From positions 62,001 through 116,158 of the IMG/VR virus record IMGVR_UViG_3300026453_000533: a DNA stretch of 54,158 nt. The stretch is one strand, 5' to 3'. This DNA is from an uncultured virus (IMG/VR IMGVR_UViG_3300026453_000533) (Duplodnaviria > Heunggongvirae > Uroviricota > Caudoviricetes). A program made the translations under genes and the position numbers. Positions 8,117 through 53,852 of the stretch are shown piece by piece. Within the stretch, counting starts at the first letter, position 1, and each line of letters opens with the position of its first letter. The notes under the pieces were generated by a model, which worked only from the letters and a program-made list of their open reading frames with translations, did no database searches and was not told where the DNA came from.

Positions 8117-9746
8117 AAAAATTGTATTTTCAAAAGAAGCTAGGAATGAACTAGCATTAGGAGTAAGTAAATTAGCAGATGCTGTAACTGCAACTTTAGG
8201 ACCATCAGGAAGAAATGTTATAATTGAACAGTCAATGGGAAATCCTGTTTCGACTAAAGATGGTGTAACAGTAGCAAAATCAATTGAGTTAGAAGATAGA
8301 GTAGAAAATATTGGAGCTCAAATTGTTAAACAAGCAGCTATTAAAACTGCCGAACAAGCAGGGGATGGTACTACCACATCTACACTATTAGCTCAATCTA
8401 TTTTATCAGAAGGATTAGAAAGGATTAAAAAAGGTTCTAATGCAGTAGATATTAAAAGAGGTATCGATAGAGCAGTTAAAGATGCTGTTGATTATATAGT
8501 AGAGAAAAGTAAAGATATAACGGATGAAGAACAGCTTACACAAGTCGCAACGATTTCAGCTAATAACGATACGGAAATTGGTGAGTTGATTTCTACTGCC
8601 ATGGATAAAGTTGGGACAGATGGTGTTGTTACAGTCGAAGAATCTAAAACTGGAGAAACATATTTGGAAACTGTTGAAGGTATGCAATTCAGCAGAGGTT
8701 ATAAGTCTCCATACTTCGTTACTGATAACGCCACAATGACAGCTGTTCTTCAAAATCCGTTTATTTTAATTACGGATAAAAGATTAAACACAGTTAAAGA
8801 GCTACTTCCTATATTAGAAGCAGTTTCTTCTGCAGGCAAGTCACTATTAGTTATTGCTGATGATATCGACGGAGAGGCGTTGTCTACTATGGTAGTTAAT
8901 AAGATGAGAGGTATTCTTCCTGTTGCATGTGTGAAAGCACCAGACTTTGGTGATAGAAAAAAAGCAATGTTAGACGATATTGCTACACTTACAGGAGGTC
9001 AAGTTGTTTCTCAAGAAAAAGGAATGAGATTAGATAAGTTTAATATCGAATGGTTAGGTAAAGCTGCAAAAGTAACAGTTACCAAAGATACAACTACTAT
9101 TATAGATGCTGCAGGAGATGAAGAAGCTATCAATAATAGAGTAGACGATATTAAAAACTTAATAGAAGAAACTACTTCACCTTATGAAAAAGAAACTTTA
9201 CAAGACCGATTAGCTAAATTCCTAGGAGGAGTAGCGATGGTACATGTAGGAGGATTTACTGAAGTAGAAATGAAAGAAAAGAAAGATAGAGTTGATGATG
9301 CTCTTCATGCTACAAAAGCAGCGTTAGAAGAAGGAATTCTTCCTGGAGGAGGAATAGCATTATTAAATGCAGCTTTAGCTTTAGCTTCTAAGATCGGTAA
9401 TATAGATCAAGAACTACAAACAGGTTACGATATAGTTATTAGTGCTATTGAAAGACCGTTTTATAAAATATTAGAAAACGCTGGATTTGACCAAGAGTTT
9501 ATAGGTACCTTAGAACAGTCAATTAAAGAAACTGGGGAATACTGGTCCGGTTATAATCCTAGAACTGAAAGCATAGTTAATATGTTTAACGAAGGAATTA
9601 TTGATCCAACCAAAGTTACTAGGTTAGCATTAGAAAATGCAGCATCAGTATCTGGTACAATGCTGCTTACAGAAGCAGTAGTTTCTAATATAAAAGAAGA
9701 CAAACCCGAAGGAGGAGTAGATCCAATGTCAATGATGGGAATGTAA
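8109..9746 (+). CDS. groEL: chaperonin GroEL
   Basis: [33 protein letters not shown], Gly/Met tail. Confidence 0.98.
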
Positions 9747-9877
9747 TGTCAGAAATTAAAGTAAGAGAATTTTTAAACGAGTACGGTCTTTATGATAAAT
9801 GGACATATAAGGGAAATAGACTTATAAGGACCGAATTCAGATACCCTAAAATTAAATTAAACAAAAATAGAATTATT

Positions 9878-10051
9878 ATGAGTGCAAAACAAGAATTATT
9901 TGAACAAATCGCAGAGCAGTTTAGTATCTTAAGTGAGAATAACGAAGGAACGACTAAAGCTTCTCAAGCAAGAGCTAGAAAAGCAGCAGGTGAGATTAAG
10001 AAATTAATTACTCCTTACAAAAAAGCGAATATGGATGCAGTAAAAGGGTAG
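9878..10051 (+). CDS. Bacteroidota histone H1/Hc1-like small basic protein (alternative upstream start at 9746)
   Basis: TKASQARARKAAGEIKK resembles the KAA..RARKA..EL.K family motif; A-rich leader before ATG 9878. Confidence 0.7.
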   Translation: MSAKQELFEQIAEQFSILSENNEGTTKASQARARKAAGEIKKLITPYKKANMDAVKG

Positions 10052-10088
10052 GGGGCATTTCTCTCTAACCGACGAAGTCGCCACGCGC
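10046..10088 (+). ncRNA. GC-rich two-hairpin structured element, copy 1 (function unknown; RNA or ssDNA)
   Basis: TAGGGGG-CATTT-CTCTCTA AC CGAC-GAA-GTCG CCACGCGC; homologous to 52936-52980. Confidence 0.5.
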
Positions 10089-10131
10089 GAATTCTACTAA
10101 GTACCTCTCTAGAGTTAACCGCTCTAGACCG

Positions 10132-10159
10132 AAGCCCTTCCGGAAACGGAGGGGTTTTT
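10132..10159 (+). terminator. intrinsic terminator of the chaperone operon
   Basis: GCCCTTCCG-GAAA-CGGAGGGGT followed by T-tract. Confidence 0.85.
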
Positions 10160-10228
10160 ATTGGCAAATAGTTGCAAAAGTGAGAAATAGTGTGTATAGG
10201 GGATCCTTCCGGAAAGCGAAGTTTAAGA

Positions 10229-10585
10229 TTAAAATTTAATACCTAGTACGGTAAATTTTGTTTGCTTACGTTGCCGGATTAAATCAATGGTAATACCTAC
10301 CGATATTCCTCCATACGTAGTTGCAAGGAGATCTCTACCGTCAAAGTAATTACCGGATTGAGTACTATCACTCATTTCTTTTAAAGTACCTATTAAAACG
10401 GCAGTACCAATACCATATAAAACAGCTTTGTCTTTGTCTTTAGTAAATTCATATGCAACAGCATATCCAAGTGCAGATGTGAATGCGCCTGCGGCGAAGT
10501 GCATTTTTTTATCCGGTTCTGTCAAAAGTTGTGCACTAGCAGGGATAGTAGTTAAAAGAACAAGTAGAATAAGTGTACGTACCAT
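10229..10585 (-). CDS. exported/membrane protein, YfiM/DUF2279-like
   Basis: Signal peptide, DKKMHF..G, KE..D....FD..DL motif; TATTTATTA upstream on the minus strand. Confidence 0.7.
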   Translation of the reverse strand: MVRTLILLVLLTTIPASAQLLTEPDKKMHFAAGAFTSALGYAVAYEFTKDKDKAVLYGIGTAVLIGTLKEMSDSTQSGNYFDGRDLLATTYGGISVGITIDLIRQRKQTKFTVLGIKF

Positions 10586-10682
10586 GGAGAGAATATTTGA
10601 GAATATACTAATAAATATTTGCTTTTTAAATTAATTTTTCTTATATTTAGATATATGTTTAAGTACTTTAATGAAGAGTGGA

Positions 10683-10817
10683 ATGAAAAAGAAAAAATTG
10701 GAGGAGGTAGTACTGACATACCAGGAGTGGCTGGAAGCGTTAAAGATTCCGACTCCGGTCCGAAACAAGAAGAAGTACCGAAGAAAAATCAAACACAAAA
10801 ATAAAAGTTATGAGTGA
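10683..10817 (+). CDS. 44-aa basic peptide with ArfA-like C-terminus, not in ORF track
   Basis: MKKKKLEEVVLTYQEWLEALKIPTPVRNKKKYRRKIKHKNKSYE*; downstream of promoter at 10619. Confidence 0.55.
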   Translation: MKKKKLEEVVLTYQEWLEALKIPTPVRNKKKYRRKIKHKNKSYE

Positions 10818-12727: not shown

Positions 12728-15700
12728 ATGAAAAAATTACTATTCTGGTTATGTCTAGTATTCCCTTTTTTAAGCATAGCCCAAGAAACAGCACCCGTAA
12801 CCTTTAGATTAGATGTTAATGAAATTATAGCTAATACTCCTAACCCAGATCAAATGCAAGTTTATATTCAAACTAGCGTTACTGGATGGACTGATATACC
12901 AATGGAAGATGTTGGAGGAAACGGAATTTACAGAAAAAATATTAATATAGGACACCCAACAGATGAAAATGTAGAGGTATTTTATAGATTTAAGATAACA
13001 TCTTTTGGTGATAATGGACTACCCTGGACAGGATGGGAAGGAGGTCCTGATGCATCTGACTGTTTATTTGATGTAGCTACAGGAGGTGCTCCAGGAGGAC
13101 CTAATAGTTTAAGAAAAGTAACAGTACCCGAAGAATTAATAGCAAATGGCACTTATGTAAATCCTTCAGGAGAATATAAATTAACCCATTGTGTTAATGT
13201 ATGTGGTAATGCACCATGTGAAGAAGAAACAACTCTAGTTGAATTTAAATTGGATATGAATGAATATCCTGATGAATATACCCAGCCTTATGTAACGGGA
13301 GAATTTAGTAATTGGACTGATCAATATCCAATGGAAGATGAAGATGGTGATGGTATATGGGAATTAGGAATAGAACTTCCCGAAGGTACTTATTTATGGA
13401 AATTTATGTTAGATAACTGGGCAGACTCAGAATTACCAGCGGGTGTGACAGAAACTTCAGCATGTTTTATACCTGATGGAAATGGTTTTATAAATAGAAT
13501 TTTAGATGTTACTATTGGGGACAGTATTTCTCTTCCTCTGGTTTGTTGGGAATCATGTTTACCCTGTGGAGCAGTTTTAGGATGTATGGACCCAACATCG
13601 CAAAATTACAACCCCTGGGCTACTATAGATGATGGTTCTTGTTCAGTAATACCACAATGTGAAGAAGGGCAGACTTTATTGCAAATAGTTTATACCGGAG
13701 ATAACTGGCCGGGAGAATCTAGTTGGATTTTATATGGAGATAATAACGGAGTAGATGTTACTTATGCAAGTGCACCTCAAGGTTCATATAACTCAGCTCC
13801 TCCTGGAGTACCTCTTACTACTTATGTATGTGTTGATCAAAATAGCACATTAGACTTAGTTATTGAAGATAGTTATGGAGATGGTTTAGCTGGTACTACA
13901 TCTGGAGGAACTGTAGATGGAAATATACAAGTTATAGCCTGTGATGGAACTATTTTATATGATTTATCAGAAAATTTCCCTAATTCAAATTTTGGTTATT
14001 TAGTTACTACCCCTCAATTTACTCCTGTTACTTGTGAAAGTGAAAGTGAAGTAGAAGGCTGTATGAATCCATTTTCAACAACCTATAACCCACTAGCTAC
14101 AGTAGATGATGGAAGTTGTGGTCCTCCTAGAATAGAAGGATGTACTGATCAAGATGCATTCAACTACAACCCAGATGCTAATACTAGTGAAGTAATGCAA
14201 GGTACATATACATTAGAGATATTTGATGGAGCTTCGGATGGTTGGAACGGTACTTGGTTAGGTTTAACTCAAGGTAATTGGGTATCTCCTCAATATCAAA
14301 TAGGTGCTAACGATGGTGAGAGTATTTCTTTTGAAGTACAGTTAAACATTTATGAACCTATTGAAGCTTTCTTATTTACTACTCCTAATTCTAATCAAAC
14401 ATTAGCTCAAATAGGGTACACTCTAACAGGTCCTTTAGGAGATAAAATTATAGATGTAGGATATTGGCAAGCAATACCATATCCTTTCGTATTAGAAGCC
14501 ACTACTCCAACTTTTGGAGATACTTGTATTCCAATTATAGAAGGGTGTATGGATGAAAATTCATTAAATTATATAGAATTAACTGGAGATCCTTTAGTTG
14601 ATGTAAATACTGACGATGGTTCTTGTATCCCTATAGTAGAAGGATGTATGAACCCATTAGCATTTAACTACAATCCAGATGCTACAGTAGATGATGGCTC
14701 TTGTGTTGAAGTAGTAGTAGGATGTATGGACCCAGATTCATTTAACTATAATCCAGATGCTAACACAGAAGGTGATTGTATCCCAGTTATAGAAGGTTGT
14801 ATGGATGAAACTTCATTCAATTATAATGAGAATGCTAATGTAGATGATGGTTCATGTATTGCAGTTGTAGAGGGATGTATGGATGAAAATTCAATTAATT
14901 ATAACCCAGATGCTAATACAGATGATGGAAGTTGTATTCCGATAGTAGAAGGATGTATGGATCCAGATTCATTTAATTACGATCCTAATGCAAATGTAGA
15001 TGATGGAAGCTGCGTACCTATAATATATGGTTGTATGGACCCAGATTCATTTAACTATAATCCAGATGCTAATACAGACAATGGAACTTGTGAACCAGTA
15101 GTCTTTGGCTGTACAGATCCAGATGCATTTAACTATAATCCAGATGCTAATACGGATAATGGGACTTGTGTACCTATTATATACGGATGTACAGATAATA
15201 CAGCATTAAACTATGATCCTAATGCTAACACAGAAGACGGTTCATGTATTCCTATCTTAGCTGGCTGTACAGACCCAGATGCATTTAATTATAATCCATT
15301 AGCTAACACAGATGATGGTTCTTGTGTACCTGTAATATTAGGTTGTACAGATAATACTTCATTAAATTACAATCCAGATGCAAATACAGATGATGGTTCT
15401 TGTATTCCTATTCTTTATGGATGTATGGATGAAACTTCATTTAACTACAATCCACTTGCAACCGTAGACGATGGTTCTTGTATTCCTGTAGTAGAAGGAT
15501 GTACAGACAATACTTCATTAAATTACAACCCAGATGCGAATACTGATGACGGTAGTTGTATCCCAATTCTATATGGGTGTATGGACCCAGATTCATTTAA
15601 CTATAATGCTTTAGCAACTGTTGATGATGGATCTTGTATCCCAGTAGTATTAGGCTGTACAGATAACACAGCATTAAATTATAATCCAGATGCTAATACC

Positions 15701-16447
15701 GATGATGGTAGCTGTATCCCTCTTTTATATGGTTGTATGGATCCTAACTCATTTAACTACAATGCACTAGCAACTGTTGACGACGGTAGCTGTATTCCAA
15801 TTGTAGAGGGTTGTACAGATCCAGATGCACTAAATTATAATCCAGATGCTAATACAGAAGACTTTAGTTGTATAGAAAAAGTATACGGCTGTATGGACCC
15901 TAACTCAATTAATTTTGATCCTGAAGCTAATGTAGATAACGGTACATGTATTACAGCAGTAGTAGGATGTATGGATCCTGAATCTTATAACTATAACCCA
16001 GAAGCTAATGTAGCTGATCCTGATGCTTGTTTATATGATGCAGGTTGTATAACAGGACCAGGTGAACCATATTGGTTAAATAACCAATGTTATGCTTGGG
16101 TAATTGACGTAGATAATTATTGCTGTGAAAATGAATGGGATCCAATTTGTCAGGAAACTTACAATTACTGTGAAAACGGATGGCCAGAAGGAATGGATAT
16201 AGACGGTATGTTCTCTAGAGGATTAGATAATGTAAGTATAATTGTTTATCCAAACCCTACAGACGGTATAATTAATATCGCAACTAATCTAGACATTACT
16301 TACTCAGTACGTGATTTATTAGGTAAGATTATAATTCAATCTTCAGATAAAAAACAAGTAGATTTATCTAACGTAGAATCAGGAGTATACTTCTTAACAA
16401 TTAGTCACGAAGGTAAGTTATTTAATAAAAGAATAATTATAGAATAA
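12728..16447 (+). CDS. large secreted Cys-repeat protein with CBM/E-set-like domains and T9SS type A C-terminal sorting domain
   Basis: SPI signal peptide; VTGEFSNW..MEDEDGDGIWE; about 22 GC(M/T)D..NYNP.A..DDGSC repeats; IVYPNPT...DLLGK...GVYFL...KRIIIE. Confidence 0.88.
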   Translation: MKKLLFWLCLVFPFLSIAQETAPVTFRLDVNEIIANTPNPDQMQVYIQTSVTGWTDIPMEDVGGNGIYRKNINIGHPTDENVEVFYRFKITSFGDNGLPWTGWEGGPDASDCLFDVATGGAPGGPNSLRKVTVPEELIANGTYVNPSGEYKLTHCVNVCGNAPCEEETTLVEFKLDMNEYPDEYTQPYVTGEFSNWTDQYPMEDEDGDGIWELGIELPEGTYLWKFMLDNWADSELPAGVTETSACFIPDGNGFINRILDVTIGDSISLPLVCWESCLPCGAVLGCMDPTSQNYNPWATIDDGSCSVIPQCEEGQTLLQIVYTGDNWPGESSWILYGDNNGVDVTYASAPQGSYNSAPPGVPLTTYVCVDQNSTLDLVIEDSYGDGLAGTTSGGTVDGNIQVIACDGTILYDLSENFPNSNFGYLVTTPQFTPVTCESESEVEGCMNPFSTTYNPLATVDDGSCGPPRIEGCTDQDAFNYNPDANTSEVMQGTYTLEIFDGASDGWNGTWLGLTQGNWVSPQYQIGANDGESISFEVQLNIYEPIEAFLFTTPNSNQTLAQIGYTLTGPLGDKIIDVGYWQAIPYPFVLEATTPTFGDTCIPIIEGCMDENSLNYIELTGDPLVDVNTDDGSCIPIVEGCMNPLAFNYNPDATVDDGSCVEVVVGCMDPDSFNYNPDANTEGDCIPVIEGCMDETSFNYNENANVDDGSCIAVVEGCMDENSINYNPDANTDDGSCIPIVEGCMDPDSFNYDPNANVDDGSCVPIIYGCMDPDSFNYNPDANTDNGTCEPVVFGCTDPDAFNYNPDANTDNGTCVPIIYGCTDNTALNYDPNANTEDGSCIPILAGCTDPDAFNYNPLANTDDGSCVPVILGCTDNTSLNYNPDANTDDGSCIPILYGCMDETSFNYNPLATVDDGSCIPVVEGCTDNTSLNYNPDANTDDGSCIPILYGCMDPDSFNYNALATVDDGSCIPVVLGCTDNTALNYNPDANTDDGSCIPLLYGCMDPNSFNYNALATVDDGSCIPIVEGCTDPDALNYNPDANTEDFSCIEKVYGCMDPNSINFDPEANVDNGTCITAVVGCMDPESYNYNPEANVADPDACLYDAGCITGPGEPYWLNNQCYAWVIDVDNYCCENEWDPICQETYNYCENGWPEGMDIDGMFSRGLDNVSIIVYPNPTDGIINIATNLDITYSVRDLLGKIIIQSSDKKQVDLSNVESGVYFLTISHEGKLFNKRIIIE
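14522..16030 (+). repeat. coding tandem repeat, about 19 units of 78 bp (26 aa), partly in 156-bp higher-order units
   Basis: Recurrent GGxTGTA(T/C)xGA...AA(T/C)TA(T/C)AA(T/C)CCAGATGC...GATGATGG units. Confidence 0.92.
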
Positions 16448-50987: not shown

Positions 50988-51506
50988 TTGCTTATGAGTA
51001 AATTAGATTTTTATCCAATGTTGTCTCCTAGAGAGATAATTGATGAAGGAGCTTTCGGAGGTTCGTACTTTGGTCTCCCTATTGAAGAGTATACTAATTA
51101 CGAGTATCAAGAGTTATTTGACTACCATTTTGACGGTTTAGATACAAGCTTATACTTAGGAGAAAAATATAAACCTAAAGTTAATAAGTTTAAAATTAGA
51201 TCCGGAATGGATTATGAGTACTGGAAAGAGATGGGATGGATGCATGAAGATGATCCTTATGGTTGGTTTGAATGGTACTGTAAATATAGCATGGGTAGAA
51301 GACATCCAGATGATGATAGACAGATTAGACGTTGGCAGGACTTCTGCGGTGTAAACGGTAGATGGAGAAAAAGAATATATAGTAGATTATATGAGACAGG
51401 TGATTGGGATGTGAGTATAAGGATACAGCAATCTTTATTACATTGGGGTTATATGATTAATGATGGTGACTATATGCAATGGAAGTATTTAAATAATAAA
51501 GTATGA
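50988..51506 (+). CDS. conserved viral hypothetical protein
   Basis: GAFGGSYF, DPYGWFEWYC, GRR..DD.RQI.RW, Q.LLHW. Confidence 0.7.
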   Translation: MLMSKLDFYPMLSPREIIDEGAFGGSYFGLPIEEYTNYEYQELFDYHFDGLDTSLYLGEKYKPKVNKFKIRSGMDYEYWKEMGWMHEDDPYGWFEWYCKYSMGRRHPDDDRQIRRWQDFCGVNGRWRKRIYSRLYETGDWDVSIRIQQSLLHWGYMINDGDYMQWKYLNNKV

Positions 51507-51984: not shown

Positions 51985-52935
51985 AGAATTATGATTAATA
52001 GGGTAAAGAAATTTTTTAAAGACATTTACTTAGGTATTAAGATAGCTAATGATAACTACATGAAGGGTAAATGTAATCACGGTAAATTTTAAATTATGGA
52101 AGAGATAGCAAACGATTTATATTATTGGGTAGCAATTGTAGACGACGTAGAGTGGTTAGTAGATGGTTATTCTGAACAAGATGTAAGAGATAAGATAGCT
52201 TTAGAAGAGCCTACTGCATTTGTAGACTTAGTAACAAAGAGTACTATAGTAAAGGTATTGTTATGAGCTCAATAGAAATAATAGGCATAGCGTTAATAAT
52301 AATACTAGTAGTTTGGCTAAAGTGGTTCTCAGAAGGATGGATAGAGTCCAGAGAATGGCATAAGAGACAAAAGACAAAAGGAGAACAAAGATGGCTATGG
52401 TTAATAAGTAAGCCGTATATAACTCCTAAGAAGATACTATATTGGTTATTCTTAATAGTACTAATAGCAGTATACATGTATATAGGATTTAATTTACCAT
52501 TATGAGTGATATAGATAAAATAGTATTTATAAGCATTTACTTCATACAATTGAGTATATGGTGTGTTTATAATATGAAAGGAGAAAGTAAGTAATATGAT
52601 CAATAGCGGAAGAGAATGGGATTGGATGGATGATGAACTATTAGAAGATGGTATAGACGATTATATAACACCGCCAAAGGAGAGTGGTGCTGTAGAGGAT
52701 TAAAAATAAAGAGTTATGAAATTATACATAAGTGAGATAGTAGGCCAAGCATATATTCTACCTTCAATAAAGATTACATATAGTAGAATGTTAAACGGTG
52801 ATTTAGAATTTATACTTGGTTGGTTAAAATATGAATTAGTTATAGCAATATGAGAAGAACAAACAAATTATTAAAAGCTTTGAAGGGATGGGAGTTTGAC
52901 ATAGGGGCGTTGTCGGCAAGTGAGAGCATGAAGGA

Positions 52936-52980
52936 GGGTGAGGGGGCGCTTTCCTCTCAACCGCCGAAGGCGTCACGCGC
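52936..52980 (+). ncRNA. GC-rich two-hairpin structured element, copy 2
   Basis: TGAGGGGG-CGCTT-TCCTCTCA AC CGCC-GAA-GGCG TCACGCGC. Confidence 0.5.
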
Positions 52981-53338
52981 ATTTTCGACGAATGTCTCAA
53001 ATGATCTACCAACCAATCCTACCGCTCCTACTTATGAATGGGATCATTATTCGGGTCTACCGGGTACTGGGGCGTATAACTAAAGACTAAAGTCTTTGTG
53101 TGGCTGAGGTAGTATAAGACTTTGGCTATACATAGATACCGGACATACCATAAGACCTTAAGAGAAACAAGCTATATAAGGTAGATAAAGGGTAAACATC
53201 AATAGATTGGTATGAAGACTATTAATAATACCAAGTGTATATATTCATATAATCATATAAGTAAATAATCATATAAAAATATATAGGTTGTATAGAATAA
53301 AGTAGATATGATGTGTGGAATAAGAGAGGTAAACATCA

Positions 53339-53370
53339 GGCACGCCTGTGCCCCGGTTCTTTTTTTCTCT
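53339..53370 (+). terminator. possible intrinsic terminator
   Basis: GGCAC-GCCT-GTGCC hairpin then CCGGTTCTTTTTTT. Confidence 0.4.
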
Positions 53371-53477
53371 ATATAGCAAAATATTTCTTCCAGACCGACA
53401 AAGAAAACCATTAAAAAAGTTGCCTATATGCGTAATTATTCGTATATTTAGGTATAAAGGTTAAAGAAATAAAGGTT

Positions 53478-53852
53478 ATGACTTATCAAGAAAAGAAACA
53501 AGCAAGTAAAAAAGTATTGGATGCCATCAAGGCATTAAAAGACAATGAGGTATTAGAAGTATCTTATGGTAAAGGGTTTAAGGGTAAGCCTAATGTATAT
53601 ACTATTAGAGCATATAGTAGTAGTAGCCGTAAAGGTGGTAAAATGTCATATAGTATCTGGAGTACCTTTAGTGGTATGAATATTGACTCTTTGGGTCCTA
53701 CTACGGCTAAGGCTTATACATTCGATATGATGTCTCAGAAGACTACTTACACCTTCCCTCTATATGAGATGAAGATAGGTCTAGAGATACCAGAAGAGAA
53801 TCCATTAGAGAAGCTACCTGGCTATATAGGAACAGAGGCCGGAACAGTATAG
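53478..53852 (+). CDS. hypothetical early protein
   Basis: 124 aa ORF after promoter at 53420 and AAAGGTT-ATG leader. Confidence 0.75.
   Translation: MTYQEKKQASKKVLDAIKALKDNEVLEVSYGKGFKGKPNVYTIRAYSSSSRKGGKMSYSIWSTFSGMNIDSLGPTTAKAYTFDMMSQKTTYTFPLYEMKIGLEIPEENPLEKLPGYIGTEAGTV

Follow-up and report, generated by a model that had tools for sequence, protein, structure and literature searches.

A conserved two-hairpin cis-element at two genome addresses in Immutovirus-like flavobacterial myophages

At least 170 distinct copies of a short two-hairpin element were found, all from Immutovirus-like flavobacterial myophages. On comparative grounds it is a real, previously uncharacterised cis-element, specific to this phage group and placed at two genome addresses; no description of it was found in the open-access literature. 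The window analysed here (54,158 nt, the last 54 kb of a 116,158-nt phage record with 34% GC and ~70% completeness) holds two copies, A and B. The element is tentatively read as a polymerase pause or loading site resembling opsX of Bacteroides, with a signal in single-stranded DNA as a close rival. Aquatic viromes commonly contain large flavobacterial myophages, whose cis-acting signals are almost unknown. The element is short, has strong comparative support and occurs in a cultured phage-host pair (immuto_2-6A and Flavobacterium sp. LMO8), and is therefore directly testable.

The consensus, ~55 bases long, runs from a G-rich arm through a GCGY loop and a (CT)n arm to a C-GNA-G hairpin of 3–6 bp and the tail CACGCG(C)RWWTT. 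The relevant features of the window are as follows.

9878–10051, + strand: Hc1/histone-H1-like gene (hc1), 57 aa; PF07432 at E=0.0013, below the cut-off; Atlas Hc1 clusters at 0.92–0.96
10046–10093, + strand: copy A, whole element (G-rich arm, loop, (CT)n arm, GNA mini-hairpin, CACGCGC, RWWTT)
10046–10070, + strand: stem 1 of copy A, TAGGGGG/CTCTCTA (10049–55/10061–67), loop CATTT, with a GG/CC extension
10070–10080, + strand: stem 2 of copy A, CGAC[GAA]GTCG, a C-GNA-G mini-hairpin
10081–10093, + strand: tail of copy A, YCACGCG(C)RWWTT, with CACGCGC at 10082–88; conserved as sequence
10108–10128, + strand: extra hairpin TCTAGAG/CTCTAGA, strain-specific, outside the element
10135–10159, + strand: intrinsic terminator-like hairpin and T run; RNA contig depth drops beyond it in 3/4 runs
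52850–53083, + strand: small conserved ORF of the GW[GE]FD ... W-H-Y-S-G-L family, with the element in its variable middle
52936–52985 (through 52980 without RWWTT), + strand: copy B, whole element, in frame within the ORF at 52850–53083
53100–53380, no strand assigned: conserved AT-rich block free of ORFs, in which motifs come in a set order and one marks the right border; a candidate for an origin or terminus/pac region
53420–53450, + strand: promoter-like motif that recurs throughout the phage, TTG...TTCGTATATT, ahead of the conserved gene at 53478

Both copies, with their compensatory stem changes, are present as the original prediction described them; at the level of the family the covariation lies in stem 2. 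Copy A opens with GGG (10046–48) followed by TAG (10049–51), the stop codon of the 57-aa Hc1-like gene, an overlap that had also been correctly noted. Stem 2 of copy B reads CGCC[GAA]GGCG (52962–72). Over a 23-nt core the copies differ by 4 mismatches, against 9 at the next-best site in the 116-kb genome and 7–9 at the best sites in 30 shuffled genomes, so their resemblance is not due to chance. A covariance model built from 88 copies recovers exactly these two in the genome (E ~1e-19) and no others at E up to 10; the two tail clusters are 42.9 kb apart. The stem-1 loop of copy A carries the A of GCA, a rare variant of the GCG usual in the family (154 of the 170 copies listed). Folded alone as RNA, neither copy is stabler than its shuffles (z = 0.31 and -0.45), and the predicted minimum free energy structure of either differs from the two-hairpin fold. 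It is family comparison, not folding energy, that backs the proposed structure.

Pattern scans of viral and metagenome contigs matched at least 123 and at least 122 stretches, respectively; GC-rich chance matches (loci above 50% GC) were removed before every count. The phages bearing the element range from 30% to 44% GC and have one to three copies per genome. Their cultured relatives are the Flavobacterium immuto phages (Immutovirus), T4-like and with nearly all genes on one strand. Among 185,579 prokaryote genomes, one stringent scan, which diverged host versions would escape, gave a single match; it lies on a contig of 1.7 kb that also has hc1 and looks like phage DNA binned in error. There is no copy in one complete relative (G009), BLAST searches of phage and plasmid collections returned chance matches only, and the motif is missing from the 8 kb looked at in a 634-kb phage with an hc1 homologue. 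Rfam 15 gave only two tRNAs at the gathering threshold and, around the copies, chance matches (E 1.5–8.8), in agreement with the earlier statement that no known family was recognised. With the covariation real and an Rfam match absent, the idea of a conserved, structured and uncatalogued cis-element stands. The available part of a 2023 screen for structured RNAs describes a candidate, DNAVirus_104, of 46 nt, from 54 aquatic viral sequences, with three covarying bases and four host calls to Flavobacterium, and as not a terminator, and it assigns this candidate neither a function nor a place in a genome (PMC10690425). It may be the same motif, likened by length, habitat and host only, and hence a prior computational listing of it (PMC10690425).

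The further homologues with covariation that had been looked for are there: beyond the number of copies, two columns of stem 2 show 42 and 40 both-side changes among 88 copies (counts of sequences, not of events), and one column has all four Watson-Crick pair types. In a second set of 54 metagenome copies, aligned by fitting to the model, the both-side changes number 29 and 22. Stem 2 is almost purely Watson-Crick, with G·U in 3 of 360 pairs, and is missing in six of the 170 copies listed. Its loop in those 170 is CGAAG in 161, CGCAG in two, CGTAG in one and absent in six, giving a C-GNA-G core in 164. Stem 1 has G·U at 223 of 835 pairs (27%), compared with 46 of 253 in neighbouring terminators. 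Its own arms pair at -11.1 kcal/mol against -10.2 ± 0.17 for permuted arms, a value reached in 0 of 2000 permutations (kinship ignored); folded as DNA the mean is -3.1 kcal/mol. A scan that did not use the tail found CACGCGC in 74 of 76 low-GC matches and CACGCG(G/A) in the other two. Thus, of the parts originally held to be invariant, the tail is so within these limits and the GAA loop nearly so, while the AC linker varies across the family.

From the G·U counts, the GNA loops and the tail counts, stem 1 looks RNA-like, stem 2 looks like a DNA mini-hairpin, and the tail seems to be kept as sequence. Short RNA stems likewise avoid G·U, which is a caveat on the DNA-like reading of stem 2. In the accessible text of one study, GCGNAGC mini-hairpins are exceptionally stable as DNA and the RNA counterpart tested, in a GAAA-loop form, is much less so (PMC13037366). 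The earlier suggestion that the GAA triloop hints at a DNA hairpin holds up to that extent, since GNA triloops do point to a DNA mini-hairpin. A warning follows for screens that seek structured RNA by covariation, which may catch GNA mini-hairpins acting as DNA. Folds of the HDV-like, hammerhead, SAH and guanidine-II types were rejected, both from Rfam and from comparison by eye with their consensuses. In deazaguanine DNA, G-quadruplexes are ruled out by established chemistry, and the sheared G·A pair should be spared. A G-quadruplex was rejected here, as the G tracts vary and immuto DNA is fully substituted with 7-deazaguanine (bioRxiv 2023.04.13.536721).

The two fixed addresses, one of them beside an AT-rich block, had been overlooked. 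CACGCGCR is present in 20 of 21 long records. In one of these (G007) it is a chance occurrence, because the reversed control is equally frequent there; in the other 19 it occurs one to four times, on one strand save for one non-element match. Two clusters, 22.8–50.5 kb apart, are seen in 14 records, and the distance in immuto is 22.3 kb. Every copy of the element is on the coding strand; as the genes lie almost entirely on one strand, orientation does not tell an RNA role from a DNA role. Site A follows groEL-hc1, and site B lies just upstream of the conserved AT-rich non-coding block. At site A, 51 of 65 tails start 19–49 nt downstream of the hc1 stop and the other 14 start 84–1336 nt downstream, and elements fall either before or after a terminator (behind one in loci L018 and L431). 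Site B has one or two copies, intergenic or in frame inside small ORFs. In the ORF family found there, the frame of the element is kept in 24 of 25 carriers, and one homologue (L146) is free of it. The second copy in immuto lacks both stems.

Copies A and B of one genome are more similar than permuted pairs (18.9 against 16.4 ± 1.0, p=0.008, for 18 genomes with kinship ignored). They are near-identical in one genome (G013). Only three of the 18 genomes had their own copy as the best-ranked partner. To judge from these comparisons, copying between the sites occurs, not as a rule. Excision between them was rejected, with no junction of A-upstream and B-downstream sequence among 188 classified contexts; the single case tagged as an A/B junction is a chance motif. 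Stop-codon readthrough or bypassing was also rejected: beyond the stop the frame shows no conservation, and the TGA of copy B is in a closed frame.

The hc1 gene is the last of an hsp20-groES-groEL-hc1 run. With an in-frame extension upstream (9746–9877) it would become an ORF of 101 aa that overlaps the stop of groEL; one relative (G001) has a comparable extension, and others have separate short ORFs. Relatives of hc1 were found at 80 viral loci with 56 distinct downstream sequences. By eye, 26 of these 56 have the element, and eight, from distant relatives, have only a stem-1-like hairpin and T run, which suggests that stem 1 may derive from an RNA terminator hairpin. The extra hairpin and the terminator reported after copy A both exist. 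The TCTAGAG hairpin, however, turns out not to belong to the element, because it appears in only two of the 56 downstream sequences, from near-identical strains, and one RNA contig skips it. Nor is the element itself an intrinsic terminator: its stems are followed by a GC-rich tail instead of a U tract, and there is a separate terminator at 10135.

Copy A lies within RNA contigs in four of four seawater metatranscriptomes (4 of 22 listed runs). Depth over the bin containing it is 27–188, in contigs that are unstranded, carry neither ends nor levels and may include DNA. After the terminator it falls to 0–3 in three runs and is low over 10128–10679, with one run (X1) bridging (contigs only, and weak). 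The drop in three of four runs implies that antitermination is not constitutive. Further along, 10200–10222 is a second, partial copy of the terminator 5' arm within a short motif, also seen downstream of site B in locus L167, and 10619–10817 holds two overlapping short ORFs in different frames, both of which recur downstream of site A in relatives. Three loci (L054, L056 and L057, at ~1650–1760) have another conserved, structured-looking stretch of ~100 nt after the hc1 stop, with no Rfam match. The promoter-like motif, TTG-N15-18-TTC(G/T)TATATT, occurs at ~22 sites genome-wide (10638 and 53439 among them), uniform in sequence and almost all on the + strand.

The AT-rich block directly follows site B in 15 of 19 loci inspected by eye, two of them identical. 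It lies 73–162 nt after the element in 21 of 21 distinct blocks, from loci fetched around elements and so biased; scans that started from the block found the element 190–326 nt upstream in six of six loci with enough flank (two identical; eight found). The immuto block, at about 66380–66720, is ~1.6 kb beyond the element and between arrays of short repeats, and such arrays also flank the block in some other relatives. The block at 53100–53380 has no Rfam match. It may be an origin or a terminus, a reading that leans partly on the anatomy of T7, and the element would then serve as a pointer to such a region. Skew at four-fold sites shows no switch at the block in either immuto or the present phage (G000), and so does not confirm an origin. 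Contig starts are enriched within 300 nt upstream (7 against 1.2 expected, n=102); those near site B are scattered 72–489 nt upstream, so that a fixed physical terminus there was rejected. Also by site B, 50994–51506 is a conserved gene of 170 aa, distantly related to genes in phages of Vibrio, Yersinia and Cobetia; it matches no Pfam, PHROG or NCBIfam family, and its Atlas clusters are hypothetical only.

The element is built most like the class-1 opsX sites of Bacteroides, yet fails membership there as it does for REP/attC, PeSL, phage nick sites, N4 promoters and Rfam families. In class-1 opsX, of ~40 bp, an RNA pause hairpin is directly followed by a YGCGNAGCR hairpin in non-template DNA, as the available part of the source has it (PMC11685472). 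The element comes from the same phylum and is of comparable size (~40–55 bp for the two), with an RNA-type hairpin having purine/TCTC arms, then a C-GNA-G mini-hairpin and a C-AC-x-CG tail, and in some copies its two stems can overlap. The opsB site in the oligo table of that study ends in CGCGAAGCGC followed by ACCCG (PMC11685472), to be compared with CACGAAGTGCC-ACGCG at the end of the 3-bp class of the element. An RNA-type hairpin abutting a DNA-type one can coexist with it in a transcription complex, which such a hybrid build would therefore fit.

The pause reading, favoured tentatively and by analogy, is of a ~55-bp strand-specific cis-signal that would act during transcription by host RNA polymerase. 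Stem 1 would form a pause hairpin in the nascent RNA, stem 2 would form a GNA mini-hairpin in the non-template DNA strand while this is exposed, and the CACGCG tail would set the pause or be read by a protein. The sites would be kept at two places, one where the strongly expressed groE-hc1 run ends and one 0.1–1.6 kb upstream of the AT-rich block. There the paused complex might load a host NusG paralog or some phage factor. The purpose would most likely be to couple transcription to replication or packaging, rather than to regulate the hc1 mRNA. If this is true, the element would be an ops-like site in a phage with a use other than leader antitermination. What is observed is conservation, covariation, RNA- and DNA-like pairing of the two stems, the two-site layout and overlap with RNA contigs; we infer pausing and its factor, what the block is, and what purpose is served.

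The elemental-pause consensus is G-10/Y-1/G+1. It fits at the step from CACGC to G in 158 of the 170 copies listed, in one of 15 registers tried and in a CG-rich tail. The hairpin of the element would lie at about -13 to -3, compared with -10 to -2 in opsX, and in the consensus register that fits best it would fall outside the bubble. At -10 to -2 the element does not have YGCGNAGCR, its stems being GAC, ACC, GCC and so on with a register shifted by 1–3 nt. It differs from class-1 opsX further in that it is in a phage and not in a 5' leader, lies inside ORFs, has an optional stem 2, and has no cognate NusG paralog just downstream or elsewhere in the phage: no NusG-family gene (PF02357) was found in 11 phage records and no KOW domain over the cut-off in five. 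Optional stems, apparently intact termination, and two A copies behind a terminator (L018 and L431) also count against a pause. Decay of stem 1 in coding copies, as expected from melting by ribosomes, is not seen; stem 1 is no weaker there (-12.6 kcal/mol against -10.7 elsewhere), and the GCG loop is present in 32 of 38 against 122 of 132 (p=0.2). It is rather doubtful that a terminator-derived, ops-like RNA/DNA hybrid stalls host RNA polymerase at two addresses so that replication or packaging is started or oriented, on DNA with full deazaguanine substitution and with no recognisable NusG paralog encoded.

The close rival, possible in its own right and fitting almost as well as the pause reading, is a top-strand signal in single-stranded DNA that would act independently of transcription, as an ssi-like primase site, a polar fork barrier, or a nick or terminase signal. 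Copy B would act for the neighbouring block, the one resembling an origin or terminus, and A would be a further site, where the groE run has its 3' end. Position is conserved where mRNA register is not, an AT-rich block adjoins the element, and repeat arrays flank that block in immuto. The ssiA site of RSF1010 has a CCGAAGG mini-hairpin and G4-type origins have related ones, according to the accessible text (PMC13037366), and like them the element is on one strand near an AT-rich candidate origin; it differs in that no RepB'-type primase was identified, the second site is 22–50 kb off, and stem 1 is rich in G·T. The nick sites of phages T5, phiKMV and tf are likewise few, strand-specific and conserved in position, and the tail of the element contains GCGCR; the element is structured and longer, however, and does not match any of the three consensuses given in the available part of that work (PMC3517423). 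Stem 1 is weak as DNA, there is no skew switch at the block and no fixed terminus from contig starts, a HUH Y1 nuclease was found in 0 of 5 records, and the complete relative G009 does without the element. If the element does act as DNA, it would show how these one-strand genomes start replication or packaging. Taking the readings together, the balance tips towards the DNA strand having a role.

An RNA-only cis-element or small ncRNA (protein-binding, processing or stability), possibly with a loop-tail pseudoknot, is unlikely. It would account for a G·U-rich stem 1 with arm-specific complementarity, for the covariation of stem 2 and for the location in a transcribed region. The GCG of the loop could pair with the CGC of the tail in 94% of cells; with no compensatory changes, and with the loop decayed while the tail persists in 16 of the 170 copies listed, the pseudoknot was rejected. 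All loop variants are GNA with C-G closure, which is the DNA motif. The stand-alone ncRNA that was originally considered sits poorly with positions 19–1336 nt past the hc1 stop on either side of a terminator and, elsewhere, in frame in 24 of 25 cases; it would have no promoter of its own, no fixed place in an mRNA and no Rfam match. A role as part of the 3'UTR of the histone-like mRNA is not borne out either, given the variable distance from hc1 and the in-frame copies at the other site.

Less probable again is a selfish or neutral double-hairpin repeat of the REP or GC-cluster kind, copying locally, or a recombination hot spot at the border of a variable region. The several contexts, some in frame, the ORF homologues lacking the element, and the within-genome similarity of A and B agree with it. 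Against it are the low copy number (one to three per genome), the single strand, the two addresses and the spread of phages from 30% to 44% GC, together with the absence of an integrase (0/5), a Y1 transposase (0/5) and an A/B junction in the 188 contexts. REP/RAYT and attC fail similarly, as Y1 HUH nucleases and tyrosine integrases were each found in 0 of 5 records and the copies are not many. PeSLs, repeated stem-loops near variable regions of T4-like myophages with signs of sequence exchange, offer a likeness; they differ, in the available part of the source, in that the stem-loop is joined to a promoter and ribosome-binding site and occurs in many copies (PMC4122927). The promoter-like motif overlaps neither copy in the window, and its nearest start is ~440–540 nt downstream. 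A hairpin promoter of the N4 type or a self-cleaving ribozyme is very improbable: N4 promoters do use GGA or GAA triloop hairpins (accessible text of PMC13037366) and the element is compact and GC-rich, but its stem 2 is of 3–6 bp or absent (six of the 170 copies listed) against a fixed 5-bp GNA hairpin, the complete cultured relative immuto has no annotated virion RNA polymerase, a top-strand template would give antisense transcripts, no Rfam ribozyme family matched, and copies lie inside a conserved ORF. The comparison with N4 made in the original prediction is not supported.

Two further features of this phage lie apart from the element. Positions 52225–64430 of its record, at and upstream of the start of the window, have a full 7-deazaguanine cluster as in immuto_2-6A, with queC/D/E/F, folE, dpdA and dpdN homologues. 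At 12728–16447 is an ORF of 1239 aa that has numerous GC-D--A-NYNP-A repeats and, at its C terminus, a T9SS type A sorting domain scoring above the cut-off; its product is a putative substrate that the phage supplies to the type IX secretion system of its host.
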